From a virus (taxonomy: Duplodnaviria > Heunggongvirae > Uroviricota > Caudoviricetes): DNA of 45,510 nt. Of the stretch, positions 939 to 41,065 are shown one piece after another. The notes under the pieces were generated by a model, which saw only the letters and a list, made by a program, of their open reading frames with translations, searched no databases and was not told where the DNA came from. The position numbers and the translations under genes were made by a program. Positions within the stretch are counted from its first letter, which is position 1; every line of letters starts with the position of its first letter. The stretch lies in the IMG/VR virus record IMGVR_UViG_2778261177_000004, positions 1-45,510 of that record; one strand, given 5' to 3'.

Positions 939-3900
939 TTAATACCCATAAGCAACATACTGTGCATATACTTTATCAGTGGAGCTACTTTTTACTGTAA
1001 AACCAGTGGCTGAGTTGTTGTATGTATAAAGAATTGCATTAACAGCATTCCCGCTATTAGGTGAAATCACAACTACCGCACACGCCTCAGGAAAAGCAGT
1101 CGGAAATTTAACTACGCTTCCTGGAGTAACAGCCGCTATAATACCCCACTGCATCATCACCTTAGTTGATGTATCCTTATGCCATCCATGAATGTTGGCA
1201 TATGCTGTGTTTTTAGCCTGATATTTCGTGTTGAAATTACTATAGTTACCAGGGGTAATCTGACCAGCGGCAGATAAATTCCCCATAACCCTTACATGGC
1301 CATCAGCACGTCCTAATTCTACGCGACCATCACCGCCATCTATCTTTAATGGAGTGTAAACGACATCACCATTAACATTTTGCCCAGTGGTTGATATCTG
1401 GAAACTATATCCAGTATTAGTTATTAGGAATCCATAGTTATTATTATAAGTTAGGCGTATAGCATTTTGGCTGCTGGATATAATTTCACCGGTAACAGTA
1501 CCACCTGTTGTTGGTAACGCACCAACATGACTTGCCGTTAATGTGATATCTGCAGAACCATCAAAAGCCACGCCACTTATTTTTCTGGCAGTTTTTAACT
1601 TTGTAGCTGTAGCTGCATTGCCACTTGTATTTTGATTCCCGGCAATATTAACGCCCGGAAGATTGATGTTTGCTGAACCATCAAACGAAACCCCGCCTAT
1701 TGTGCGTGCTGTTTGCAGTTTTGTGGCAGTTGCAGCATTGCCGGTAGTGCTCTGATTGCCTGTTTTATTCACGCCCGGCAGGTCGATGTTTGCGGTGCCA
1801 TTAAATGAAACGCCACCAATGGTTCTTGCCGTTTGTAATTTCGTTGCAGACGCCGCGTTTCCAGTTGTGTTCTGGTTGCCTGTTGTATTTACACCAGGGA
1901 TGGAATCCTTCGATGTGTAGACCTGCGCCCACTCAGACCATGCAGCATCTGTTGAATCCCTGCGAGAGCGAATGAAAGCCGGTGCATGAGCACCACTAGT
2001 CCCACTCCAGCCAATGAGCAGCTCACCTTCACCAACGGCAGTAGATCCCTTCAGGTGAAGTAGATTCCCGTAAGTCGTGGGGTAACCATTGTTGTACACC
2101 TCATACATCTGCAATCCAGTGGTAGCACCTTGCGTTGTGCTGGTAAGCGCAGTAACACGCCCTCTGGACGTAATTGTTGGTATCGAAATGTTCGCAGAAC
2201 CATCAAACTTAACACCGTTGATTGTGCGGGCTGTTTGCAGTTTTGTAGCGGTTGCAGCATTACCTGTTGTGTTCTGGTTACCGGCAATGTTCACACCCGG
2301 CAGGTTGATATTGGCGGTGCCATCAAATGCCACCCCGCCGATTGTGCGTGCCGTCTGAAGTTTCGTTGCGGTTGCAGCATTACCGGTTGTGCTCTGATTA
2401 CCTGTTTTATTTACGCCTGGAAGATCGATATTGGCACTACCATCGAATGACACTCCGCCTATTGTGCGTGCTGTTTGCAGTTTTGTGGCAGTTGCAGCAT
2501 TGCCGGTAGTGCTCTGATTGCCTGTTTTATTCACGCCCGGCAGGTCGATGTTTGCGGTGCCATTAAATGAAACGCCACCAATGGTTCTTGCCGTTTGTAA
2601 TTTCGTTGCAGACGCCGCGTTTCCAGTTGTGTTCTGGTTGCCTGTTGTATTTACACCAGGGATGGAATCCTTCGATGTGTAGACCTGCGCCCACTCAGAC
2701 CATGCAGCATCTGTTGAATCCCTGCGAGAGCGAATGAAAGCCGGTGCATGAGCACCACTAGTCCCACTCCAGCCAATGAGCAGCTCACCTTCACCAACGG
2801 CAGTAGATCCCTTCAGGTGAAGTAGATTCCCGTAAGTCGTGGGGTAACCATTGTTGTACACCTCATACATCTGCAATCCAGTGGTAGCACCTTGCGTTGT
2901 GCTGGTAAGCGCAGTAACACGCCCTCTGGACGTAATTGTTGGTATCGAAATGTTCGCAGAACCATCAAACTTAACACCGTTGATTGTGCGGGCTGTTTGC
3001 AGTTTTGTAGCGGTTGCAGCATTACCTGTTGTGTTCTGGTTACCGGCAATGTTCACACCCGGCAGGTTGATATTAGCGGTGCCATCAAACGCCACTCCGC
3101 CAATTGTGCGTGCCGTTTGAAGTTTCGTTGCGGTTGCAGCATTGCCAGTAGTGCTCTGATTACCTGTTTTATTAACGCCCGGCAGGTCGATATTGGCGGT
3201 GCCATCAAATGCCACCCCGCCGATTGTGCGGGCTGTCTGAAGTTTCGTTGCGGTTGCGGCATTGCCGCTTGTGTTCTGGTTACCAGCAACGTTCACGCCT
3301 GGCAGGTTGATATCTGCCGAACCGTCAAATGCCACCCCGCCGATCTTGCGAGACGCCTGAAGTTTCGTTGCGGTTGCAGCATTACCGGTTGTGCTCTGAT
3401 TGCCTGCTTTATTCACGCCCGGCAGGTCGATATTGGCGGTGCCATCAAATGACACTCCGCCGATCGTTCGAGCTGTCTTGAGCTTTGTGGCAGTATCGGC
3501 GTTCCCGGTCAGCGTACCAGTAATCCCACCGCCAACTTTTACGCCGTTACCGATGGACACCAACCCAGTTCTTAAGTTTATAGAAAATGGTCTTAATGGC
3601 CCGATGTCACCATTTTCACCCTCCCCTTCATTTGTCGGGATAAGATGAAGATATTCCTCGGATCTCCTGAAGATAAGGCCAAAGGCCTGGTTAAATATTC
3701 GAAGGGCATTTATTGTGCCAATTTTTAGCTGCCCCCCCATTGTGTCGCCAGAACGCTGAACTGCGTTACCAGCTTGAGAAGCAATATCCGTTAAGCCAAG
3801 ATCTTCAGGGGTAAGAGTAATATCTGCCGAACCGTCAAATGCCACCCCGTTAATCTTTCTGGCTGTTTTTAATTTCGTCGCGGTATCGGCGTTCCCGGTC

Positions 3901-5210
3901 AGCGTACCAGTGATCCCCGCGCTGAAAGTCTGGCGTGCATTCCATGTGTTAGCCGTGCTCAACAGGGGGATTTTTTCACCGCTGGTACCGAGTTCTCTTA
4001 AACCAAGGTATTGGATAACAGCCAGAGTGCTTGTTTTAGCCAGAATATCGCGACCGACTGACGTTAAATCAGTCTGGGCTACAGTGTCTGTTCCGGTAAA
4101 GTACGGTAATTTATTTGCTCCCGTCGCCAGGCCAGCGAGCGCGGTTAAGGTTGCGTCGAGAGGCTGCTTACCTGCCAGGGCATTTGTCATTGTAGTCGCA
4201 AAGTTCGGGTCATTGCCCAGTGCTGCGGCAAGCTCATTCAGGGTATCAAGAGCTTCTGGTGATGAGCCGACCAATGCAGAAATAGCGGCACGAACATAAG
4301 CGGTTGTTGCAATCTGAGTGTTGTTCGTACCTTGTGACGCCGTAGGAGCTGTTGGAACCCCCGTAAATGCCGGGCTTAATAACGGCGCTTTAAGAGCTAA
4401 CGCATCATTAATCGTCTGGCTAAACTGGGGATCATTGTTTATTGCATCTGCAATTTTTTTCAGCGTATCCAACGCTGAAGGAGAACCATCAATAAGGGCG
4501 GTTATTGCGGCCTGAACAAAGGCAGTGTTTGCGATTTGTGTACTGTTTGTACCTTGTTCCGGAGTTGGAGATTTAGGTATACCAATAAACTCCGGGCTAT
4601 CAACCGGAGCTTTTAGTTTGTTTAACGTGCTGATAGCAAGAGGTGTTGCGGCTTTATATTCTTCGTCACTATCCAAAGCACTGGAAAACTCAACACCAAC
4701 AGCACGATTAGCACGATATTCAGTGCTAATCATATCTGCGGTAACGGCTTGAGCATTGTCAGGCACGATCACGCGGCATAGCTCAATCTGGTTAGATGCT
4801 ATTTCCTCATCAACGAGAGCAATAATTCTCGCTGCGCTAATATCCGATGAACTATCTACCTGGCTGGTTTTCACTCCATGTTCGTAATTAGCTTCAAGAA
4901 CGATGATTGTCGTTACACCAGCTTCTACAGGAACAAGAACATCACTGACTTGCTGCACGGATATCTGACATTTACCCACGTCAATTGAAGCCGCCCCTCT
5001 TCCCTCTGTTTTCTCGGATGTAATCCGCACAAACAGACCATCCCCTGGCACCGGTTCAAACCCACAGTACACTCCGGGCAGAACGATATTTTTCATCTTC
5101 CTGTTTAGAGCTTCGGTGCTATACAGCTCAAAGTATTGCATGTCTGCAATTAGTGGAGCGGAAATGTCCGAAGATAAGGTGACAATATTCTTTACTTTAT
5201 CTGCGCACAT
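939..5210 (-). CDS. long tail fiber protein (P1 S-like), 1423 aa, with internal repeats
   Basis: Very long ORF with about 40-aa repeats ([28 protein letters not shown]...) typical of phage tail fibers. It sits between baseplate genes and the Tfa gene. Confidence 0.8.
1693..3074 (-). repeat. tandem direct duplication of a 762-bp unit (copy A about 1693-2312, copy B about 2455-3074), embedded in a roughly 120-bp periodic repeat array spanning about 1560-3500
   Basis: Same sequence found at offset 762 (e.g. ccggtagtgctctgattgcc at 1741 and 2503); identical overlapping ORFs at 2051..2287 and 2813..3049 in the supplied track; a 254-aa block occurs twice in the tail fiber protein. Confidence 0.85.
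3993..4018. other. candidate site-specific invertase crossover site (hix/gix/cix-like 26-bp site) inside the tail fiber gene
   Basis: ttctcttaaaccaaggtattggataa matches hixL (TTCTTGAAAACCAAGGTTTTTGATAA, recalled from memory) at 21 of 26 positions including the AAACCAAGGT core. One half-site, TTATCCAATACC, is close to the Din-family consensus. Confidence 0.4.
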
Positions 5211-6627: not shown

Positions 6628-8058
6628 TTACGGATAGGTTATGCTGAACGTTGATGATTCCACGTCCAGATAAACAAAATCATTAAAGTACACAGCTTCT
6701 TTCATGTTCTGCGTAGCCACGTCATAAGACAGGAACATATCCAGCGATTCGATTACTCGCCAGATATCTTTTACTTTGACCTGTGCATAACATTGCTGTG
6801 AGTCGTCATCACTCTGCAATAGCTGGCTAAATGACATGGAGTCTTTACCGAAGTTCTCCTCCAGTGCCGCTTTAATTGCAGTTAGCGCGTCATCCACCAG
6901 CACACTCTTTTTTACGATACCGGTAAATTTGATGTTGAACGGCTGTTCATTGGTGGCGACGTATTCGAACTTCTTATTCAGCTCATTAGGGATACTCTCA
7001 AGGGCTGATAATATCTCTGTTTTCAGAGCTTCCTGTGTTACGCCGGGCTTATGCCCACAAAAGAAAATTTTGTTGATATTACGCACATCAAAGCCCGTTA
7101 TTTTCTCCTGTAGCGCCTCCCCCCACACGTTAAGCCATGACGTGCCACTGACCACGTTCTGAATGAACTGGCGGTAATCACCGCCCCAAACAACCTGCTC
7201 ATCGTAGGCCACATAATACTGCGCCCTGTTTCGGGTTTCCTCGGTAGTTTCCATGCCACCACCGCCAGAAATGATCGAATCGGTTTTTACTTCCAGTGAT
7301 TCGACATACCCGGAGATGTTCCCTGCTGGTTCAAGTTTCTGGCCTTCAGCCAGCGTGTAATCACCGAGGCTTGCCATAATATCAATGCGTACCTGACTCC
7401 CTGCCGCTGGCATCATCCCCATTGATCCATCACCGAAGCGCACGCCGATCTGTTCTGTCGGCTTATAAACCAACACATAATGTTTACTGTTATCCCTGGA
7501 CATGCGGAATAGGGGGTTATGTGTCCATTTTTCCTCGACACCATTAGTTATCACGACAACTTCCAGGCTGGCGACTTCTGCTGTTAACTCACGGGAAAGT
7601 AACAACGTCAGGAATGGTGTTTCTTGCACCACGTCGAACGTTATGCTGACTGCTTCATGCTGTTTTACTTCTATTCCGGATACTGTTTCACCAGCAGGGA
7701 TAACAACACTACTGCTGGTTGCAATTGGTGTCTGGTCACTTGTCAGTAATTCAGCCCCTCCGGGTAGCGTAATATCCCTGTCGGTTTTGTTGGTGATGGA
7801 AACAGTGCCGTATGACGCATCGACCAAACGACCGACATAGCCACGGTCTTCCGCTGCCGCGAGAATACTTGCTCTGCGCGTCGCGGTGGAAATGAATCCT
7901 TCTGTAAGTGCACGGCTTGCAAATGTACGCGCAATATAAACAATCTGCGCGCCCAAAACGGACTGCATTTGAATAAACTGGCTGTTTACAAATCGCGCCC
8001 ACCAGGGGTTTTCGTTCAGCTTGGCATTAAACTTGTCCAGTAATTCGGTAATACTCAC
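6628..8058 (-). CDS. baseplate wedge protein (gpJ / gp6-like; P1 bplA position)
   Basis: 476-aa ORF immediately downstream of, and overlapping, the gp25-like gene, as in P2 W-J and T4 25-6 arrangements. Confidence 0.5.
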   Translation of the reverse strand: MSITELLDKFNAKLNENPWWARFVNSQFIQMQSVLGAQIVYIARTFASRALTEGFISTATRRASILAAAEDRGYVGRLVDASYGTVSITNKTDRDITLPGGAELLTSDQTPIATSSSVVIPAGETVSGIEVKQHEAVSITFDVVQETPFLTLLLSRELTAEVASLEVVVITNGVEEKWTHNPLFRMSRDNSKHYVLVYKPTEQIGVRFGDGSMGMMPAAGSQVRIDIMASLGDYTLAEGQKLEPAGNISGYVESLEVKTDSIISGGGGMETTEETRNRAQYYVAYDEQVVWGGDYRQFIQNVVSGTSWLNVWGEALQEKITGFDVRNINKIFFCGHKPGVTQEALKTEILSALESIPNELNKKFEYVATNEQPFNIKFTGIVKKSVLVDDALTAIKAALEENFGKDSMSFSQLLQSDDDSQQCYAQVKVKDIWRVIESLDMFLSYDVATQNMKEAVYFNDFVYLDVESSTFSITYP

Positions 8059-31642: not shown

Positions 31643-32410
31643 TTACCCCATTCTCAGAGAGGTTTCAGTAATAATTCGTTTCGCGTCCAGCTCCCAGGCG
31701 GTGATCACGTCTGCTATAACACTAATTGCCGTTTGTGCAGCATAAATACGCTCTTCCCCAATTGGGGCTGAAACATCAGTAAAACTGATGTCTTTAGCAT
31801 CCTGAATCGCGCAAATTAGCGGGACGGGTACTCGTACCAGCGGGGTTGTTGCTTCAAACTGCGTTCCTGCCATCAAGCGAAGACGTGCTCCTAGCGAATT
31901 ACACATCAGACTCATGGTCGCCTTATCCGTCGCCATTAATGTAACGTCATACGTCAGATTTGCCTGGGTGTATTCCAGGGCTACTAAAGGCATACCGCTG
32001 CCAGGTTCGCAGAAGTGATCACAGCTTTTGCGGTCTATCTGCTGGTCATTGTTGATATAGCTGATATCCATTGAGCGCGAGATATTAATCAGAGGGAGTG
32101 CATCGCGATTAATGTTCGGATTCTCTGGCTTTCTCCCTTGCCCGGCATTAGCACGGCGAACCGCTTTAAGGAACTCGACCGCGTTATCAAAACGGGCAAC
32201 ATAAACACGCTCCGCTGGTGGGCGACTCAGGAATGATGCAAAGCGCCTTTCTTCTTTTGCTGGTTCCACCAGCGTTACGTCAGAAAAAATGTCACTGATT
32301 AGCGTAGCAAAAGCGTTATCCACTCTTTCCAGACCAGTTGTCTGGAATTTTCCAGTACGCGTTGTCTGCCACTCGCCAATGCGGGACAGGAGAGTTTTGT
32401 TGGGTGTCAT
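31643..32410 (-). CDS. hypothetical tail/baseplate assembly protein
   Basis: 255-aa ORF in the operon. Confidence 0.4.
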   Translation of the reverse strand: MTPNKTLLSRIGEWQTTRTGKFQTTGLERVDNAFATLISDIFSDVTLVEPAKEERRFASFLSRPPAERVYVARFDNAVEFLKAVRRANAGQGRKPENPNINRDALPLINISRSMDISYINNDQQIDRKSCDHFCEPGSGMPLVALEYTQANLTYDVTLMATDKATMSLMCNSLGARLRLMAGTQFEATTPLVRVPVPLICAIQDAKDISFTDVSAPIGEERIYAAQTAISVIADVITAWELDAKRIITETSLRMG

Positions 32411-33276
32411 TCGATCACTCCGTTTTGAGTGGTATCAAAGTTCCTGGCCGGGATGCAGTAATAAAGGGAGCCGACGTGTTGTGTTCCGTAGCTGAAGATT
32501 CGATGCACGTACCACCAGCGGCGGGCGAGGCCATTCGCCATTTCTTCGTTCCATTCCAGGATTGAACCAACAGGTACGTTGTTTGCAGCAATACGTAGGA
32601 TTAGCACTTCATCAGCAAGACCATCCTGTTCTCCATCGGCATCAATGGCATGAAACGAATCCCTTCCGTCCGGGTTATCTAGGACGTATACGATTTCCGG
32701 TTCCAGATAGGTAAGCTCACGCTGGTTGTTGTCCAGTTGCGTGAAAGACTCTTCACCTGTTTCATCGTTTACGACGCCATAGGTGCCATCAGCCGGGCGG
32801 TATAAAAGCGCCTCGAACGCGTCAGGGCTTGATTCAATAATGAGCATCCAATCGGCGCGGATCTGGTCGTTGAACGCTTTATGTCCGTTATATCGGGTTT
32901 TAAGCTGCTGGTTTGGTTCTCTGTTAGCGAGCGATGCCGGTAGGGGAGCGATGTCAGGTTCAATCACTTCCGTAACAGAGTCACCAGCATTATCAGGCCA
33001 ATTATCATGGCTATTAGATTGGGTGGCGGCGTGCTCTTCCAGAATACTGAATGGCCCTGCACTGACATTCCCATTTTCCGTTGTGCTTCCTTCATTCGCT
33101 TCAACCGTCGTTGTCTCTTCTCTCTGCGTGCTGTCATGTTCTGTTCCCTTTCTCATCAGGCTTGCATCATCAGCAAGCCATTCATCAAAACGGCCCATAA
33201 GCGTCCTCAAAGGTCGATTTATCTGGTATCGAGGGGCATTGTCTGGAGATTGTGATTTCAATTCATATCCCAGCAT
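32407..33276 (-). CDS. hypothetical tail protein (acidic)
   Basis: 289-aa ORF, first in this minus-strand cluster. Confidence 0.4.
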   Translation of the reverse strand: MLGYELKSQSPDNAPRYQINRPLRTLMGRFDEWLADDASLMRKGTEHDSTQREETTTVEANEGSTTENGNVSAGPFSILEEHAATQSNSHDNWPDNAGDSVTEVIEPDIAPLPASLANREPNQQLKTRYNGHKAFNDQIRADWMLIIESSPDAFEALLYRPADGTYGVVNDETGEESFTQLDNNQRELTYLEPEIVYVLDNPDGRDSFHAIDADGEQDGLADEVLILRIAANNVPVGSILEWNEEMANGLARRWWYVHRIFSYGTQHVGSLYYCIPARNFDTTQNGVIE

Positions 33277-33342
33277 GGGACTAAAGTGCTTTACATTGTC
33301 CCATATTGGGACTACTATACTTTCAGAGAGAAGGAATCTGTG

Positions 33343-33645
33343 ATGAAAATAATTTCGGTAAAAACACTAAGGGATTTCTGGGCGAAGAATCCCGATGCAG
33401 AACAGCCATTAAAGGCATGGGTTGATGAAGCAACAAAGGCTGACTGGAAAAACCCGGCTGAGATCAAAGAACAGTACCGGACAGCCAGCATCCTTAAAAA
33501 CAGGCGCGTGGTGTTTAATATTAAGGGAAATGATTACAGGTTAATTGTCGCAATTGCTTATCAGCGAGGATGGATGTTCGTTAAGTTTATTGGAACACAT
33601 AAGGAATACGATGCCATTGAAGCGGATACAATAGAACTGGAGTAA
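33343..33645 (+). CDS. higB: type II toxin HigB (RelE/ParE superfamily mRNA interferase)
   Basis: 100 aa from the ATG at 33343 with an AAGGA RBS; ...GNDYRLIVAIAYQRGWMFVKFIGTHKEYD matches the HigB/YgjN pattern; toxin precedes antitoxin as in higBA. Confidence 0.8.
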   Translation: MKIISVKTLRDFWAKNPDAEQPLKAWVDEATKADWKNPAEIKEQYRTASILKNRRVVFNIKGNDYRLIVAIAYQRGWMFVKFIGTHKEYDAIEADTIELE

Positions 33646-33648
33646 ATC

Positions 33649-34008
33649 ATGAACATTAAACCTATCCGTACAGAACAAGATTATGAGGCCGCACTGCGTG
33701 CGGTCGAACCGATGTTCGATAACGAACCGGAAATGAACACACCGGAAGGCGATTTCTTTGAAGTAATGTGCCTGCTCATCGAAGAGTACGAGAAAAAGCA
33801 TTACCCAATTGAGCCACCATCACCTATTGAAGCCATTAAGTTTCGTATGGAACAGCAAGGGCTGACAGTGAAGGATCTGGAACCGGCAATTGGTAAGTCA
33901 AACCGTGTTTACGAAGTGCTTAATGGCACGCGAAATTTGACGTTACCTATGATTCGTCGTTTACATTCCCAGTTTGGCATTCCTCTTGAAAGCCTGGTTG
34001 GTGTTTGA
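33649..34008 (+). CDS. higA: antitoxin HigA (HTH-XRE)
   Basis: 119 aa with a C-terminal HTH (GLTVKDLEPAIGKSNRVYEVLNGTRNLTLPMIRRL) directly after higB. Confidence 0.8.
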   Translation: MNIKPIRTEQDYEAALRAVEPMFDNEPEMNTPEGDFFEVMCLLIEEYEKKHYPIEPPSPIEAIKFRMEQQGLTVKDLEPAIGKSNRVYEVLNGTRNLTLPMIRRLHSQFGIPLESLVGV

Positions 34009-34069
34009 GTCTGGCGGTCTGGAAGACCGCCTTCACCAAAAATAAAGATAAGAAGGTTTGAATTTTTAT

Positions 34070-34807
34070 ATGAGCAAAGATTCATCATTAGAAAATAAAG
34101 ATGAAAATGTCACAGTCAGGAACACAATAGAAGAAGCCATAAGAGACAAGTTATTTAATAAGTTGTTTGCATATGTTGTGGTTTCTTTTTTTGTCGTTAA
34201 CTGGCAGGATATTATTATATTATTTAAATCAAAGTACGATATATATACAACATTGTCTATAGTATGGGTTGGTGAGAAATATCACTTTCCTTATGTTGGC
34301 CCCATCATTGTATCTCCGTTTGTGGCTCATTTTGTTATGCCATTTATATATGGAACCACTGCGTCAGTGGTAATGCCTTATATAACAATGTATATATCAA
34401 AAGCAACAGGCAGGAACTATGCAAGAATTAGATACATTGACTATGAGTTTGATTTAGAAGAGAGGGCAAGAATAAAAGAGTTGCAGATCAACTTGAAGCA
34501 AAAAGAGAGCAAGCTTTTAAGTCTAGAAAAGCAAACAGAAGATCAATATAAATTATTGTCTGCAATTGAAGAGAAGAAGAGAGAGACTGAGAGTGCCAGA
34601 GTGGCTCTGTATCACGGCATAAAAGTAATTGTCGATGTATATAAAGCAAAAAAGAAAAGAATTTCCACCCAAGAAGATTTTGCCGATTTATTAAAAGCAA
34701 TTGAAGAAAGCGATTTTTATAAAGACACTGGATTGTGGGGTATTAATAAACTAATAGATGACGTAGAGACAATATATGAGTCTCAATCGACATCAAAGGA
34801 CAAGTAA
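34070..34807 (+). CDS. AT-rich integral membrane protein with C-terminal coiled coil (unknown function; candidate exclusion/abortive-infection factor)
   Basis: About 245 aa from the ATG at 34070 (AGAAGG RBS); about 4 predicted TM segments then a charged coiled-coil tail; sampled GC about 30-35 percent versus about 50 percent nearby; flanked by hairpins. Confidence 0.55.
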   Translation: MSKDSSLENKDENVTVRNTIEEAIRDKLFNKLFAYVVVSFFVVNWQDIIILFKSKYDIYTTLSIVWVGEKYHFPYVGPIIVSPFVAHFVMPFIYGTTASVVMPYITMYISKATGRNYARIRYIDYEFDLEERARIKELQINLKQKESKLLSLEKQTEDQYKLLSAIEEKKRETESARVALYHGIKVIVDVYKAKKKRISTQEDFADLLKAIEESDFYKDTGLWGINKLIDDVETIYESQSTSKDK

Positions 34808-34812
34808 TATAA

Positions 34813-34832
34813 AAGGCGGGATAACCGCCTTT
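34813..34832. terminator. bidirectional terminator hairpin (aaaggcgg/ccgccttt)
   Basis: Inverted repeat between convergent genes with T/A-rich flanks. Confidence 0.5.
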
Positions 34833-34840
34833 GTTGTAAA

Positions 34841-36037
34841 TTAAGAACCTTTCTTCACATACTCCATAAACATTTTTTCAGCTTGCTCAGGTGACGTTCC
34901 TGTCATGACCAGCGCATCAATGAACGCTTGCTTCTTCAGTGCGAATTGATCGGCAAGGCGTTGCTGAAGCTCCTTGTTTTTCTGTTTCTCACGTTGCAAG
35001 GCTGCTTCTTTTGCTGCTGCCCGTTTTTTCTGTGCATCGGACAACTTTCTGGCCCTGGTCAGCTGATCACGTAGCTTGTCAATCTTGCCGTTGTCCTTTG
35101 CCAGTTTTGTGCTTAAAGCGGCCTGGCGTTTCTGATAGAGCTTCCATTCACGTTTAGCTGCCTCAACATTCGTTTTGCTGCTACGATTTCGATTGAACGC
35201 CTTCTCGTCTTCTTTTGTGAAGTGTTTTGTCGTGCGGCGGCGATCGTCACCAAAGGCAACTTGCGTTGCAGCTTTTTGCAGGGCGCGAGCAATACTCATC
35301 TGCCAACTGGCAGACTGTAGTCGTGTCATTGAGTGGATCACATGTTTACAGGCGACGCCTTGCAGCTTAGGGTTGCGAACTTTTGGATAGGCGTATTCTT
35401 TTGGCGGGGCCAGGGCAAAGTTACCCGCAGTGGCGATGTAGCGATACCAGTATTGATGGCGACCGCAGTCACAATCGAAAGACACTCGCCCGGCACACAG
35501 TGATTTTGTGACTTTCAGGGCTGATTTATCGTCTTCTGCGATGTCATCGACCATCTGATCCCATTCTTCAAAACGTACCCGGACAATGTGGTGCTGGTGA
35601 ACGGATATATCGGACGCTTCCACGCGGATATTAATCACATTGTGACGAAGAGATACGGGCGTAGCTCTTTTGATACCAGAACCGTCGTCTACGGCGTTAT
35701 TTGCTCGCTTAATATCGATAGCCTGGCTGGACGCTACCAGTTGTGCGTATGTAATGCCAGCCGTCTTGCTGTCGTATTTTTCGCGTGCTTTGCTTCGCAG
35801 CTTTTCGAAGCCTTTCAGATCGTCACGCGTAAAGAACGTGCCGCCTTTCTTTTTCCCCAGCTTAAGAATGTCTTCGGCTGATTTATTCCTAAGCCTGCCC
35901 GGCGTGAGTGTCCTGTGCGCCTGGCGGCGTTTGCGGTTTTGCTCTTTCCTGATGAGTTCAAATACGCGTGTGAAATCCTTAGAGGACAGGCCGTCAGTGA
36001 TATATCGCCCGTCCTGATTTTTCAGGAAGTCAGGCAT
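34841..36037 (-). CDS. SWIM-type zinc-finger protein with basic coiled-coil C-terminus
   Basis: 398 aa; CxC...CxH signature (FDCDCGRHQYW...GVACKHVIH); K/R/Q-rich C-terminal coiled coil. Confidence 0.5.
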   Translation of the reverse strand: MPDFLKNQDGRYITDGLSSKDFTRVFELIRKEQNRKRRQAHRTLTPGRLRNKSAEDILKLGKKKGGTFFTRDDLKGFEKLRSKAREKYDSKTAGITYAQLVASSQAIDIKRANNAVDDGSGIKRATPVSLRHNVINIRVEASDISVHQHHIVRVRFEEWDQMVDDIAEDDKSALKVTKSLCAGRVSFDCDCGRHQYWYRYIATAGNFALAPPKEYAYPKVRNPKLQGVACKHVIHSMTRLQSASWQMSIARALQKAATQVAFGDDRRRTTKHFTKEDEKAFNRNRSSKTNVEAAKREWKLYQKRQAALSTKLAKDNGKIDKLRDQLTRARKLSDAQKKRAAAKEAALQREKQKNKELQQRLADQFALKKQAFIDALVMTGTSPEQAEKMFMEYVKKGS

Positions 36038-36359
36038 TTTCTATCTCCGGTGCCGAGCCAGCGTAATCGCGAATCTTGTTTCTTAGCCATGCTGCGTCAG
36101 GAAGAGTTAACGTTGTCCCTACCGGCATTTCTTCCATTTCTGACTCATGGCCCACCAGCACGCGAAATACCCAGCGCAAATCAGCGTTGCCATAGGCGCG
36201 ATAGGCCGCCAGGTCTGAGCGATAAACCTCATCAATTTTTATCGTGTACTGGAAATTATCGGAGTGATACTCCGATACCCGCTTGATCATCTCCTGATGG
36301 AATAGTGCGCGCAGCACATCGTCTTCAATGCATCGATCGTCGAGCCTGCTGTAACTCAT
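36030..36359 (-). CDS. hypothetical protein (operon partner of the SWIM protein)
   Basis: 109-aa ORF overlapping the downstream gene by 8 nt. Confidence 0.45.
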   Translation of the reverse strand: MSYSRLDDRCIEDDVLRALFHQEMIKRVSEYHSDNFQYTIKIDEVYRSDLAAYRAYGNADLRWVFRVLVGHESEMEEMPVGTTLTLPDAAWLRNKIRDYAGSAPEIENA

Positions 36360-36552
36360 AACAGTTCCTCACAGTCATAACCTGGGGGAAACTGTATACA
36401 GGGTGTGAAATGCGAGAAACAGACAGGCCACCAGTTCAGGGGGATGTGGTTCATAAATCCCCTCATTGGTGACAAGTGACTTTCATTAATCTTTATGCGG
36501 GGGCCAGCTTCATTTGCTGGCATTAGATTAAAAATTAAACGGAGTGAATGAC

Positions 36553-36687
36553 ATGGATGTTATTCTAGAATTGTTAAAGCTTATTGATCTGTTTATGAAC
36601 GCCTCATTGACCACGCAAATACTGGCGTCAGTATTTTTGTTACTCTTCTACCTAGTATTGAGGGAGTTAACAAAGCTACTAATGTGA
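36553..36687 (+). CDS. small hydrophobic peptide (44 aa; candidate membrane peptide / type I toxin-like)
   Basis: GGAG RBS upstream of the ATG; sequence MDVILELLKLIDLFMNASLTTQILASVFLLLFYLVLRELTKLLM; stop abuts the convergent gene. Below the ORF-track size cutoff. Confidence 0.35.
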   Translation: MDVILELLKLIDLFMNASLTTQILASVFLLLFYLVLRELTKLLM

Positions 36688-37341
36688 TCAAAGTATCACG
36701 GTATCTTCATCAACTTCTTTCCCAGCCAGTGACTTTGGCTGGGAGGTGCCTGCTTTAACTTTTTCATGCCCAATAATGGAAAGGAACGAAGCGAGTATGC
36801 CTGTTTTTTGCTCTTTCTCGACTGTCCCGGTCATCTGCTCTACGTAATCCGCACTGGCAACGTTGTGGTATACGGTCGCGTAGCAACACAGGATCATCAG
36901 AATATGCTCCGGCCTGATATCCTGCCAGTTCACCCTGTAGACTTCTTCTCCGTTACCGTTGTATTCGGTATCAACGATAGAGTCGGGGATTTCGAAAGCA
37001 CCTTTGTTATTTTGCGGCAGGGATAATAGCTTCTGGAGTTTTAACTCTCTGTATCTTTCCATCCCGACGATGATTGCTGCTCTGCCATCGGCATGACGTG
37101 TCTTGAGAGTCACTTGGCTTGCTCCGGTGCCAGCGGAGATCGTTGGCGTAATTTCGTCTACCAGTACCTTAAATTTGCTTTTCCGCAGGGCTGCTATAGC
37201 TGGAGGAATTTTTTGCTTTTGCTCCAATGCTGACGCGGGAAGGGGTTTTACTTCGTTAATAATGAGAGCACCGTCTTTCAGTATTGCAGTGAGCATTTGA
37301 GGCTTGCTGGTGGTCAGGCTGAATATTGCGATCTTTTCCAT
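36688..37341 (-). CDS. hypothetical protein
   Basis: 217 aa from the ATG at 37341 with a strong GGAGGAAGG RBS; the track start at 37383 would run into the upstream terminator hairpin. Confidence 0.5.
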   Translation of the reverse strand: MEKIAIFSLTTSKPQMLTAILKDGALIINEVKPLPASALEQKQKIPPAIAALRKSKFKVLVDEITPTISAGTGASQVTLKTRHADGRAAIIVGMERYRELKLQKLLSLPQNNKGAFEIPDSIVDTEYNGNGEEVYRVNWQDIRPEHILMILCCYATVYHNVASADYVEQMTGTVEKEQKTGILASFLSIIGHEKVKAGTSQPKSLAGKEVDEDTVIL

Positions 37342-38253: not shown

Positions 38254-38646
38254 TTGAAAAGATTTGCTATTGCTTTACTGGCGTCTTTCCCTTTGATCGC
38301 GAGCGCCGGAAATTTACAAGTTAAGTGCGGTCGGTTTGATATAAAAATCTATCCAGATGCCATATTTCTGAATGGGAATAAGGTTGATAACGCACACCGA
38401 AAAACTGAATCTGACGTAATGAGCTATGTGTTCCAGTAGTATGCGGAGATGGGGGGAACTTACACGCTGTACTCGCTGGATGTTCCTTCTCGCGGTGATA
38501 TGACATTATCCCATCAATGGCAGAACGCCGATGGCGAAGCTCTGCGCGAGGTTAAAACAGAAAAATGTGGCACTTTCCATTCTTTTAAAGGGAAAGCGCC
38601 AAATGTTAAATCTGTGCTTGAAAAACAGCGCGCAGGTGATTTTTAA
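38254..38646 (+). pseudogene. secreted small protein gene interrupted by an in-frame amber (TAG at 38437-38439)
   Basis: ORFs 38254..38439 and 38449..38646 are in the same frame; GGAGG RBS and TTG start; signal peptide MKRFAIALLASFPLIASA; both halves contain a KCG.F motif. Confidence 0.35.
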
Positions 38647-38734
38647 ACTGCGTTAGAACTTTGAACATGGCGACAACACATCTTGGTGGCTGCGTTGTCG
38701 CTGTATGCTTTTATAATATAAAGCATTAAAGTTT

Positions 38735-39352
38735 TCATTTTTGTCGGATCTTTTCCAGCATATTTAATTCATTATCACTTTCTGCTGCTGAGACGGTTGG
38801 CCTCACATTTCCGAAATATTTCCTGTGAGACTCATGACTTATGTATTCACCGACAGTTTCATTCTTGAATATACGAATTTGACATATGCGAGATCCAACA
38901 ATAAGTTCCACAGGGCTATTCCCATGATTAAATAACTCTAAAGATATACAGCCTCTGTACCCTGGTTGTATCATGGTATTTAATGAAAGACCAAGCCTTG
39001 TATAGCTGCTTCTGGACAATACATCAGCGTAGCAATCTGGTGGCAAACAAACATATTCTAATGTTGTTGCCAGTACCACTTGATTCGGGTAAACAATGAA
39101 TCTATCCCCAAGATCTCTCCTTGTTTCCTGGAAAAATGTTCTGATTGGTTGATGAGTATCATTGTTTTTAGAGGGAATTAACTCTATTGACGGCTTCCTT
39201 GTCATAATAGACACTAAAAAATCGTAACCAAGTCTAAGGTCTATGGTGAAGTTCCCAATTTGGTTTTTATTTAGAAGAGGTTCAATGAACAACGATTCAG
39301 GTTCTTCTGATTCATAATATTGCAGTAATTCAGCTTTGCTTAGGAGATTCAT
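38735..39352 (-). CDS. dCTP deaminase (Dcd/dUTPase-fold) family protein
   Basis: Collinear similarity to E. coli Dcd (recalled from memory): IDLRLGYDF; SRSSYTRLGL versus GRSSLARLGL; IQPGYRGCISLELFNHGNSPVELIVGSRICQIRIF versus [34 protein letters not shown]. ATGA start/stop overlap with the upstream gene. AT-rich. Confidence 0.7.
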   Translation of the reverse strand: MNLLSKAELLQYYESEEPESLFIEPLLNKNQIGNFTIDLRLGYDFLVSIMTRKPSIELIPSKNNDTHQPIRTFFQETRRDLGDRFIVYPNQVVLATTLEYVCLPPDCYADVLSRSSYTRLGLSLNTMIQPGYRGCISLELFNHGNSPVELIVGSRICQIRIFKNETVGEYISHESHRKYFGNVRPTVSAAESDNELNMLEKIRQK

Positions 39353-40434
39353 TGTGCATTCCATTTTTCAAGAATCATTACGTTTCGAATCGATTTTTCA
39401 ACCAAATCATTTATAGTTTTTTCTATGGCTTCTTTTGACAACCCAGACCATATACCCGTAGGTTTTTCCCATTCAGAGCATAAGTACTGCCAGCTGCTGT
39501 TAATAAAAGCATGCATTTCATTGTGGTCGCGAATAACAAAAGGACGCACATTATCAAAAGCTGATTTCACATCAAGCAAAGGTGTCGGCAATGTCAAACA
39601 AGGAGAAATAATTTGCCCACCCTTATGTAAGGCTGATATCACAGCATTGAACATGCCAATAACTGGATTTTCCACTTTGTTCAAAAAGTCGCTTACAACT
39701 TTAACCCTGTTTTCTGTTGATGGGTGAGTTTCGCTTGCAGGATGAGAACCAGCTAATTTGTATAAGAAATCCACACCGCTTTCCCCTACAAATTGCGCAC
39801 TGAAAAGATCTGCAAAATACTCCCTACAGTGATTCAGCCAAATAACATCAGGTAATTTAGACCACTCAATACCTTTATGTGGCACAGGAAGCGTACCTTG
39901 ATTAATAGAACGAAAGTTTAGATTGGCAAGCTCAGAAATACCTTTGCTAATATCAACAAAGTGGCCCAACTCGTGATATAAAGGTGTTGAGCACAATGGT
40001 CGTCTTCGGTACATTTCAGGTAATGAAATCTGAATTAATTCGATATCGCATTTAACATGTAAAATTTCATTAAGTAAAGTGTAGAAATTCTTACTTACAG
40101 ACTTAAAATAAAACCCATTCATATCTGGCGATAGAGCCGTTGTAATAAGTGTTTTTTCACTTATCCATTTTTTACAGGCATCATTTAAGCAATAAACAAT
40201 CTCGTAGGGAATTTTCTTTGTAGTACTGCCAGTGAAAAAATTAACTGCATCGGTGATAAAAAAAGTACAATCAGCAATTATTTCATCGGCAACCTTCTCA
40301 TGGTTTTCATATAGCTTATCTGCTGCTTCTTGTAGAACAGCGAGATATTCATGCATGTCTTTAGAAAAATAGGGAGATTCTGAAATCTCCCTTAGCTTAT
40401 TTCGAACTAATGTAAGTTGTGTAAATGCAAGCAT
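39349..40434 (-). CDS. HExxH zinc metallopeptidase-like protein (ImmA/IrrE-like signature)
   Basis: 361 aa with LYHELGHFVD followed about 45 aa later by EYFADLFSAQF, resembling the ImmA/IrrE HExxH...E..AN.FA pattern; TAATG overlap with the upstream gene; AT-rich. Confidence 0.5.
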   Translation of the reverse strand: MLAFTQLTLVRNKLREISESPYFSKDMHEYLAVLQEAADKLYENHEKVADEIIADCTFFITDAVNFFTGSTTKKIPYEIVYCLNDACKKWISEKTLITTALSPDMNGFYFKSVSKNFYTLLNEILHVKCDIELIQISLPEMYRRRPLCSTPLYHELGHFVDISKGISELANLNFRSINQGTLPVPHKGIEWSKLPDVIWLNHCREYFADLFSAQFVGESGVDFLYKLAGSHPASETHPSTENRVKVVSDFLNKVENPVIGMFNAVISALHKGGQIISPCLTLPTPLLDVKSAFDNVRPFVIRDHNEMHAFINSSWQYLCSEWEKPTGIWSGLSKEAIEKTINDLVEKSIRNVMILEKWNAQ

Positions 40435-40739
40435 TAAATGTACTCTAATACATTCCGGGCCATTACGGGTTCTAACATATCTTCGCTAGTTACTTTGGTT
40501 AGCACCTTGGCTAGCGCCTTAGTATGGCGTATTTCTACCGCGAGCGAGATGGACTCTCTGTGAGAGGGAATCTGTAGTTGATCACCTTTATCTACACTTA
40601 AGTTTGAGGCTTCTCTGATCACCTCATAAACCCGTAACTTTAACTGCTGTGACACTTCTTGTTGAGATGCTATAAGCTGAAGTACAGTCTTGATCAACTT
40701 CAAAGAATCAGAAGCTTGCTGAGGAACCGCATAGAGCAT
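40434..40739 (-). CDS. small helical protein, first gene of the three-gene operon
   Basis: 101-aa ORF translationally coupled to the metallopeptidase-like gene. Confidence 0.45.
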   Translation of the reverse strand: MLYAVPQQASDSLKLIKTVLQLIASQQEVSQQLKLRVYEVIREASNLSVDKGDQLQIPSHRESISLAVEIRHTKALAKVLTKVTSEDMLEPVMARNVLEYI

Positions 40740-40877
40740 AACCCCTCCTTTCCCTTATCTATAACCGCTTTCTTTTTTTCTGTGTATGTTAAAAGTAGAA
40801 GCGGTTTTTACCTTTTGTAATATATATAGTGTCTAAAACTAACTTTGGCACTATATATGGCATGATATCTATGTTTT

Positions 40878-40920
40878 AAAGACACAAAAGCTCTGTTTTA
40901 ACAGAGCTTTTGTGTCTTTA
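40878..40920. repeat. perfect 43-bp palindrome (19-bp arms, aaagacacaaaagctctgtt / aacagagcttttgtgtcttta) in a highly structured intergenic region
   Basis: Perfect inverted repeat; additional inverted repeats nearby at about 40763-40807, 40822-40858 and 40949-40997. Confidence 0.6.
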
Positions 40921-41065
40921 ACTTGATCATTTTCTCGCTGAAGTGTATGTCAGGCTTAGCTCATAATCAAGTTGCTTCCAAGCTAAAAATGAGCTGGCTC
41001 CCTGAAACACTAAGAGCGGGGTGTTTCATTTATTAGCGTTGGGCCTGACGGTGTGTAGGTGAGTT

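Follow-up and report, generated by a model that had tools for sequence, protein, structure and literature searches.

What is a small, AT-rich membrane gene doing between two tail genes of a phage-plasmid, and why does it stand next to a toxin-antitoxin (TA) pair? The gene in question, which we call TMCC, lies on the plus strand at positions 34070 to 34807 of a 45,510-nucleotide stretch of viral DNA (Caudoviricetes; IMG/VR record IMGVR_UViG_2778261177_000004, positions 1 to 45,510), and this whole stretch is referred to here as the window. The window represents a D6-like, P1-type phage-plasmid with D6 as its nearest phage, and the region that holds the gene is 99.7% identical to the 92.8-kb Escherichia coli plasmid NZ_LR890273. 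We find that TMCC is accessory cargo and not a core phage gene. Its product is predicted to cross the inner membrane twice and to carry a long helical stalk in the cytoplasm that ends in a small helical head at the C-terminus. An initial inspection of the letters alone (hereafter the sequence-only reading) had pointed to superinfection exclusion (Sie) or abortive infection (Abi) as possible functions. Judging from its context, we favor an anti-phage membrane effector of the Abi type, expressed in the lysogen, although we hold this explanation tentatively and with less than even confidence.

The accessory status of the gene is clearest from its surroundings. The flanks on both sides are minus-strand homologues of P1 tail genes, with 24 and 7 to the left and 25 and 26 to the right. 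The gene 7 homologue (32407 to 33276; PHROG 1906 tail protein, 2e-110, and the D6 annotation) and the gene 25 homologue (34841 to 36037; PHROG 1722, 1e-195, and the D6 and P1 annotations) directly enclose a plus-strand island of higB, higA, and TMCC, the last of which is convergent with gene 25. In P1, 3 bp separate genes 7 and 25, which belong to a single late operon, so the island is a D6-lineage-specific insertion on the opposite strand. The slot was found in three layouts: HigB-HTH119-TMCC, as in the window; HigB-HTH119 alone; and, in D6, RelE-HigA (112 amino acids)-HTH119-TMCC, where HTH119 denotes a HigA-like regulator of 119 amino acids. Comparison with NZ_LT906557, a plasmid carrying only higBA, delimits a low-GC cassette of 798 bp on the plus strand (34032 to 34829) that is present in some D6-like plasmids and absent from others. 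A copy of the 6-bp direct repeat ACCGCC stands at each end of the segment (34026-34031 and 34824-34829). The empty site in NZ_LT906557 has a single hairpin, the same as that at 34013-34031, followed by TTTGTTG, and the 798-bp segment supplies its own terminal hairpin ahead of the same TTTGTTG. TMCC is thus accessory cargo, as the sequence-only reading had supposed, because genes 7 and 25 abut in P1, some D6-like plasmids lack the gene, it lies in a low-GC indel, and its homologues occupy cargo slots elsewhere.

The same reading had described a single gene of about 245 codons with markedly low GC content, bracketed by hairpins, and all of these features were borne out. The open reading frame (ORF) opens at 34058 (TTG) or 34070 (ATG) and ends at 34807; the ATG, which gives 245 amino acids, is backed by homologues, all of which begin MS.DSS, and a Shine-Dalgarno-like AAGAAGG motif lies 13 nt 5' of the start. 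Pairwise Nei-Gojobori comparisons between alleles gave ratios of nonsynonymous to synonymous substitution (dN/dS) of 0.15 to 0.4. Together with sequence conservation, this rules out a spurious ORF, and TMCC is a real coding gene under purifying selection, about 10 times more relaxed than its neighbors HTH119 and gene 25 (0.01 to 0.04). The GC content of the gene is 0.332 against a window mean of 0.469 (z = -3.3); only 0.16% of 738-nt segments are as GC-poor, and the minimum of the whole window falls in this region. The hairpin between higA and TMCC (34013 to 34031, plus strand; GGCGGTCT gga AGACCGCC; folding free energy -15.2 kcal/mol, z = -3.2) has no U-tract in the allele of the window and is probably a leaky terminator or a processing or stability element. 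The second, between TMCC and gene 25 (34812 to 34832; AAAGGCGG gataa CCGCCTTT; -15.4 kcal/mol), is terminator-like on either strand (z = -4.9 on the plus strand and -4.3 on the minus strand). An Rfam scan of 32000-37000 returned no known RNA family.

The sequence-only reading had also recommended comparing this locus among related phage-plasmids, and doing so revealed alleles of 34 to 100% identity, recurrent linkage to higBA, and residence in the cargo slots of several kinds of mobile element. A solitary homologue is found between gpV and gpS, on the opposite strand, in P2-like Klebsiella prophages, and this slot carries different cargo in related phages. In another P2-like element (L057; 1-1529 and 2894-4696), the homologue follows gpD-ogr, 2.5 kb from AAA_15/AAA_21 and DUF4435 genes, a domain pair described for the PARIS system. 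Other copies lie directly after a DUF4145 gene and beside resolvases, in an island with Dcm methylase, H-NS, and HNH genes, or downstream of umuC-like genes. Low GC content is a property of the family, with homologues at 0.35 to 0.36 and their flanks at 0.53 to 0.61. Among 5426 complete E. coli genomes, 74 carry the family, always on a plasmid and never on the chromosome, and PLSDB holds 156 plasmids with a member (55 of them from Klebsiella) versus 115 with a D6-type gp25.

Two further observations concern the slot between genes 7 and 25 itself. The 1.6-kb island divides what is a single late operon in P1 (26-25-7-24-6-5), and candidate routes for transcribing genes 7-24-6-5 in D6-like phages are a new late promoter in the divergent region between gene 7 and higB (33277-33342) or antitermination. 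One D6-like contig (L009) has an extra ORF of 159 amino acids (6832-7311) between the membrane gene and gene 25, and the slot therefore keeps gathering cargo.

Could the gene instead serve lysis or morphogenesis, as a holin, antiholin, spanin, or tail or baseplate accessory? It sits between two tail genes, and a membrane anchor joined to a helical domain superficially resembles i-spanins and holins. However, the late operon runs on the other strand and TMCC converges on gene 25; P1 lacks the gene, as do some D6-like plasmids in which the tail genes are otherwise conserved in sequence; and copies are present on non-phage plasmids and chromosomes. On these grounds, we reject a lysis or morphogenesis role as very improbable. 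There was also no holin, spanin, or structural match in Pfam or PHROG. The sequence-only reading had singled out homology to a transporter or to a morphogenetic or lysis protein as the result that would speak against its proposal, and neither sequence nor fold comparison revealed any.

As for the protein, about four transmembrane (TM) segments and a long charged coiled-coil C-terminus had been proposed by eye. The first of these was an overcount. A Kyte-Doolittle profile peaks twice, over residues 32-52 and again over about 75-110, and we place the two hydrophobic segments at 32-52 and 84-110. An alignment of 44 relatives likewise contains only two such segments, of 21 and 27 amino acids, with a loop of ~19 amino acids between them. 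The D6-type clade has a 12-amino-acid insertion in this loop, modeled by AlphaFold2 (AF2) as a beta-hairpin. The first AF2 model, made from the 14 closest sequences, was poor (predicted local distance difference test score, pLDDT, of 66), while 44 diverse sequences gave a pLDDT of 88.7. In the N-terminal part, this model has a helix at 10-28, a TM helix at 31-53 kinked at N44-W45, a helix at 58-65, and a beta-hairpin at 70-80; these are followed by one continuous helix from 83 to 193 (pLDDT above 90) and two further helices at 201-213 and 215-244. The charged C-terminal helix therefore stands, with 40% charged residues over 113-193; a crude a/d test of heptad register scored the helix no better than shuffled sequences. 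One homologue carries the NCBI name 'coiled-coil domain-containing', relatives match coiled-coil Pfam families, and the modeled helix is probably a coiled coil.

Across the same 44 relatives, which share a mean identity of 17%, residues N44, W45, S54, P91, and P103 are almost or entirely invariant. Conservation is strong over the N-terminal half, and the first 125 residues hold nearly all of the invariant columns. Lysine plus arginine counts average 4.1 in the N-terminal tail and 4.5 beyond the second TM segment, against 2.3 in the loop. This weakly favors a hairpin with both ends inside, and the long C-terminal part would then lie in the cytoplasm.

The protein had seemed to belong to no recognizable family, and this holds for Pfam, NCBIfam, PADLOC, and PDB but not for PHROG. 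The hidden Markov model of PHROG 8191 (unknown function) matches over its full length (E-value of 3.3e-115; residues 1-245 on positions 1-241 of 242), a membership that names the protein without explaining its function. The corresponding slot of phage D6, enclosed by its gene 7 and gene 25 homologues, holds a protein 34% identical, orf73 (ASR76396). Searching 1.84 billion representative proteins with a profile returned 73 relatives, 26 of them below 1e-10, and nearly all are 200 to 290 amino acids long with the same layout. TMCC thus belongs to a wider uncharacterized group without a PADLOC model. Pfam, searched at E-values up to 1, gave nothing above threshold, only DUF6947 (0.004; 17.7 bits against a 27-bit cut-off) and SAC9, and NCBIfam gave no match. 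No relative was found among PDB sequences with either the single protein or a profile of the N-terminal domain as the query, and a Foldseek search of the PDB with the first AF2 model (pLDDT of 66) was uninformative. The longer relatives (306 to 379 amino acids) contain no fused domains and so offer no Rosetta-stone clue, and word-indexed profile searches with full-length and N-terminal alignments returned only further fragments, all labeled 'hypothetical'.

What does the variation among alleles suggest? In a set of 21 viral contigs and several plasmids, allele identities of the membrane gene are 100, 97, 79, 70, 66, 39, and 34%, whereas in the same contigs and plasmids gp25 remains at about 96% and HTH119 at 97-100%. 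Sliding identity profiles drop steeply at the borders of the gene and reveal mosaics within it. In one contig (L008), identity is 93-98% at the 3' end and about 79% elsewhere in the gene; in L009, the 5' end is at 91-94% and the 3' part at 55-77%. Intragenic recombination breakpoints are present, and TA type and allele class combine freely. Most of the variation falls in the predicted cytoplasmic stalk and head, whereas the TM helices and the short periplasmic loop vary far less. The rapid, mosaic change of this gene beside nearly frozen neighbors suggests an evolution resembling an arms race.

Small inner-membrane proteins that exclude superinfecting phages include T4 Imm, P22 SieA, and HK97 gp15, and TMCC could be another, a constitutive protein that blocks the genome entry of (related) phages without killing the cell. 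Such a role would suit a lysogen-oriented membrane gene in prophage cargo slots, its strong allelic diversification, and the D6-type lineage-specific insertion in the predicted periplasmic loop. However, the variation is concentrated in the predicted cytoplasmic stalk and head rather than in the loop and TM helices, where entry would be blocked. The gene is also found on non-phage Klebsiella plasmids, in islands, and at a plain chromosomal site, and it showed no similarity to any Sie family in Pfam. On balance, we regard classical superinfection exclusion as quite unlikely.

The pair beside the gene also invites an explanation. Directly upstream lie higB (33343 to 33645, plus strand), encoding a RelE-fold toxin of 100 amino acids (Pfam PF09907 HigB_toxin, 3.3e-34; PADLOC PD-Lambda-2_A, 1e-41; RefSeq annotation of the 99.7% identical plasmid), and the higA-like gene for HTH119 (33649 to 34008, plus strand), a helix-turn-helix (HTH) antitoxin or regulator (Pfam HTH_3, 3.5e-5; PHROG 1373). 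TMCC thus lies directly 3' of an antitoxin-like gene, in agreement with the TA neighbor recognized by eye, and the pair has the sequence features of a type II HigBA system, namely a RelE-fold HigB, an HTH antitoxin after it, and a promoter containing palindromic operators. The sequence-only reading had taken HigBA simply as a neighbor. This is correct as to adjacency and falls short in that the relationship goes beyond placement, with higB-higA-TM recurring as a mobile three-gene unit.

The recurrence spans unrelated partners and replicons. In L012, a relative of D6, a different HigB (103 amino acids) and HigA (139 amino acids) precede a 39% allele. This three-gene cassette is 95% identical at the nucleotide level over 1715 bp to one on Klebsiella IncFIB plasmids, L048 (NZ_CP069846) being among those that carry it, with 99% identity for HigB and HigA and 89% for the membrane protein. 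The IncFIB cassette adjoins IS66 and has no phage genes near it. In a separate phage-plasmid-like element with a Gp23-type capsid, ParA, and SLT, the order HigB-HigA-TMCC is kept at 54, 53, and 25% identity, respectively, and relatives of that element have TacA-TacT, a 129-bp higA remnant, and then the membrane gene. A hairpin is present at every higA-TMCC junction examined, with a sequence that differs by lineage. TMCC thus usually travels as the third gene of higBA cassettes, and the adjacency is not incidental.

Does this make TMCC a working part of HigBA? One reading is that it is the third component of a tripartite HigB-HigA-membrane module, tuning HigBA or being put to use by it as a membrane-bound sensor, scaffold, or effector. 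The gene order shared by D6-like elements, which have two unrelated HigBA types, by a second phage-plasmid family, and by Klebsiella IncFIB plasmids would fit, together with the 1715-bp cassette swap, as would the higA gene or remnant that is still found 5' of the membrane gene where RelE/HigA or TacAT has replaced HigB. HigB-type systems that need a third gene for defense also exist, as with PD-lambda-2 (PMC9519451). Against it, one and the same membrane allele (98-99% amino acid identity) is found both beside HigB and where HigB is missing, the gene is intact at loci with an HTH119 cut short at 66 amino acids (9 of the 21 viral loci) or frameshifted, and higBA is kept where the membrane gene is absent or disrupted by an insertion sequence (IS). 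Obligatory coupling is thus disfavored. Alleles ranging from 34 to 100% identity pair with one near-invariant HTH119, so there is no co-variation, and many homologues are solitary. A tripartite role strikes us as unlikely. The intact gene beside a truncated or frameshifted HTH119 also leads us to reject the idea that the membrane protein has HTH119 as its own antitoxin.

HTH119 has a distribution of its own, seen at loci in phage D6 (L001, 4579-4938), L013 (5758-5958), and L009 (5558-5939). In D6-type layouts, it is an orphan, with no HigB and no TCCCA-N3-TGGGA operators at the locus, and there it is 97-98% conserved with a dN/dS of 0.02 to 0.04. In other loci, the gene is truncated to 66 amino acids or frameshifted.

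The nearest described three-gene system with HigB- and HigA-like parts is PD-lambda-2, an Abi defense operon in which a HigB-like gene is followed by a gene whose product begins as an Xre HTH of the HigA type (Vassallo et al. 2022, PMC9519451). The HigB of the window matches PADLOC PD-Lambda-2_A (PDLC03979) over its full length at 1e-41. The resemblance of HigA is partial, with a match to PD-Lambda-2_B at 7e-43 that covers only positions 1-119 of 402; unlike PD-Lambda-2_B, the window protein ends at 119 amino acids and has no C-terminal ImmA/IrrE peptidase domain. The third gene here encodes a two-TM helical protein and not a P4-antitoxin-like PD-lambda-2C. With component A matching and B and C failing, we do not assign the locus to PD-lambda-2. 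Three-part toxin-antitoxin-chaperone (TAC) systems of the HigB-HigA-SecB-like type also have a third co-oriented gene after HigBA. In contrast to these, a membrane protein takes the place of the SecB-like chaperone as the third product of our locus, the chaperone-addiction extension is missing from HigA, and the membrane gene is dispensable for keeping higBA.

How might TMCC be expressed? The sole plus-strand promoter-like site found upstream of it is TTTACA-17-TACTAT (33290 to 33318), a putative higBA promoter just before higB. Two TCCCA-N3-TGGGA palindromes lie at 33268-33280 and 33299-33311, the second between the -35 and -10 elements. Two occurrences compare with 0.02 expected, and the motif is present only in loci with this HigB type. 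The palindromes are probably the HigA operator, and the layout has the putative form of a classical autoregulated TA promoter. From the junction hairpin without a U-tract, the spacing of 38 nt between that hairpin and the ATG, and the single upstream promoter, we infer read-through transcription from PhigBA. TMCC is antisense to the late tail operon, and expression in the lysogenic phase would therefore be expected.

The explanation that we favor would combine these features as follows. TMCC would be a horizontally acquired cargo gene, or moron, of a D6-type phage-plasmid, expressed in the lysogen and not during lytic growth. Transcription would start at the HigA-controlled promoter at 33290-33318, pass through the 34013-34031 hairpin, and stop at 34812-34832. 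The protein would form a two-helix hairpin in the inner membrane with both termini inside, and N44, W45, S54, P91, and P103 would mark its active, conserved part. The membrane hairpin may be the effector, and the cytoplasmic stalk and head a fast-evolving sensor that determines specificity. The host of the mobile element would then be protected against other phages by an Abi-type effector triggered from the cytoplasmic side, which appears likelier than a block of DNA entry. A conflict-related function is suggested because the gene is accessory and low in GC, its homologues fill cargo slots in several mobile elements, a conserved membrane core is joined to a mosaic cytoplasmic part, and the gene is linked to TA systems. 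HigB- and HigA-like components can themselves act in anti-phage Abi systems, an example being PD-lambda-2 (PMC9519451).

Several known proteins offer parallels. T4 Imm, P22 SieA, lambda and P22 SieB, and lambda RexB are small membrane proteins of prophages or morons that shield the lysogen and are often fast-evolving and AT-rich. The likeness of TMCC to them is by analogy only, with no sequence or fold similarity detected, and it differs from them in having a helical cytoplasmic extension of ~135 residues and in occurring also on non-phage plasmids. A membrane-anchored coiled-coil (DUF4041) nuclease has been described as a defense protein (PMC9519451). It joins a membrane anchor at the N-terminus to a coiled coil in the middle and is a single-protein element of defense loci; TMCC, whose long helix is probably a coiled coil, resembles it in layout but has no DUF4041 or nuclease domain. 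The two-TM module is also reminiscent of CBASS- and retron-type 2TM effectors, but the protein has no match to the PADLOC 2TM effector models, and the one distant family member that does (4e-4) is most likely noise.

A number of observations weigh against a defense function. The protein had no match in PADLOC at E-values up to 10, and no homology to characterized Sie, Abi, or defense proteins was found in Pfam, in PADLOC, or by way of its relatives. The 44 relatives gave only coiled-coil noise against Pfam and PADLOC (e.g., LmuB, JetC, and ZapB). A structure search, which the sequence-only reading had recommended, was run on the AF2 model, and fold searches overall returned generic helices only. 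We found no paper that mentions the accessions of the family, and all members are annotated as 'hypothetical'. The gene also appears readily dispensable, as one phage-plasmid copy is frameshifted, and in K. pneumoniae NZ_CP137420 (L047, 3501-5466) an IS903B after codon ~134 splits it while higBA is intact; most of the sampled Klebsiella hits show the same truncated two-piece match. In some alleles (L008), a run of T follows the junction hairpin, which would point to a separate promoter. One homologue stands alone at an ordinary site of an Enterobacter chromosome, where its neighbors are asr on one side and a gene for an M32 carboxypeptidase on the other. Lastly, cargo slots also hold non-defense genes, and guilt by association is a weak argument.

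Alternatively, the cargo may be unrelated to phage conflict and may serve membrane or envelope stress, host fitness, or plasmid maintenance, for instance as a membrane toxin in post-segregational killing. The lack of defense homology would be consistent with this, and the solitary Enterobacter copy adjoins an acid-shock gene, asr. The ties to the plasmid-stabilizing TA modules HigBA, RelE/HigA, and TacAT, and the restriction to plasmids in the complete E. coli genomes, point in the same direction. Rapid mosaic change in the cytoplasmic part beside near-frozen neighbors would, however, be unusual for a housekeeping-type stress factor, and the gene recurs in prophage cargo hot spots. A strong toxin is further disfavored by the tolerance of the gene without a cognate antitoxin-like partner. 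We consider cargo of this kind rather unlikely.

A bolder version of the Abi-type effector, which we think quite improbable, is that higB-higA-2TM constitutes an undescribed tripartite module with two prongs. Phage shut-off of the host would lead to loss of HigA, which is labile, which would both free the HigB RNase and raise the level of the membrane effector; the hairpin would then collapse the membrane, and the head would set phage specificity. The module would move as one cassette between the tail-gene slots of phage-plasmids and Klebsiella IncFIB plasmids, and its third gene would represent a new effector family that also works alone in the hot spots of P2-like prophages.

If TMCC is an anti-phage effector, the defense repertoire would gain a new membrane family of single genes that PADLOC does not contain, and the finding would help explain why a cargo island is tolerated inside a late tail operon. 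It would also bear on the host range of therapeutic phages in E. coli and Klebsiella. Phage-plasmids of the D6/P1 type are common in E. coli and Salmonella of clinical and livestock origin. If there is no phage phenotype, TMCC would be one more uncharacterized moron. The linkage to higBA offers a tractable case for asking whether genes ride TA promoters for stress-inducible expression.

Elsewhere in the window, a second low-GC island (<0.38) at 38535-40997 contains three abutting minus-strand genes. These encode a 101-amino-acid protein of no family (40434-40739), a 361-amino-acid protein with an HELGH zinc-peptidase-like motif and no Pfam or PADLOC match (39349-40434), and a 209-amino-acid dCTP-deaminase-like protein (38735-39364; Pfam DCD, 1.3e-30). 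This island looks like another accessory cassette, possibly of defense type. Near the start of the window, also on the minus strand, a tail-fibre-like ORF of 1423 amino acids (939-5210) has a long internal duplication, with one block present twice, and many GNAA(T/S)ATKL repeats.

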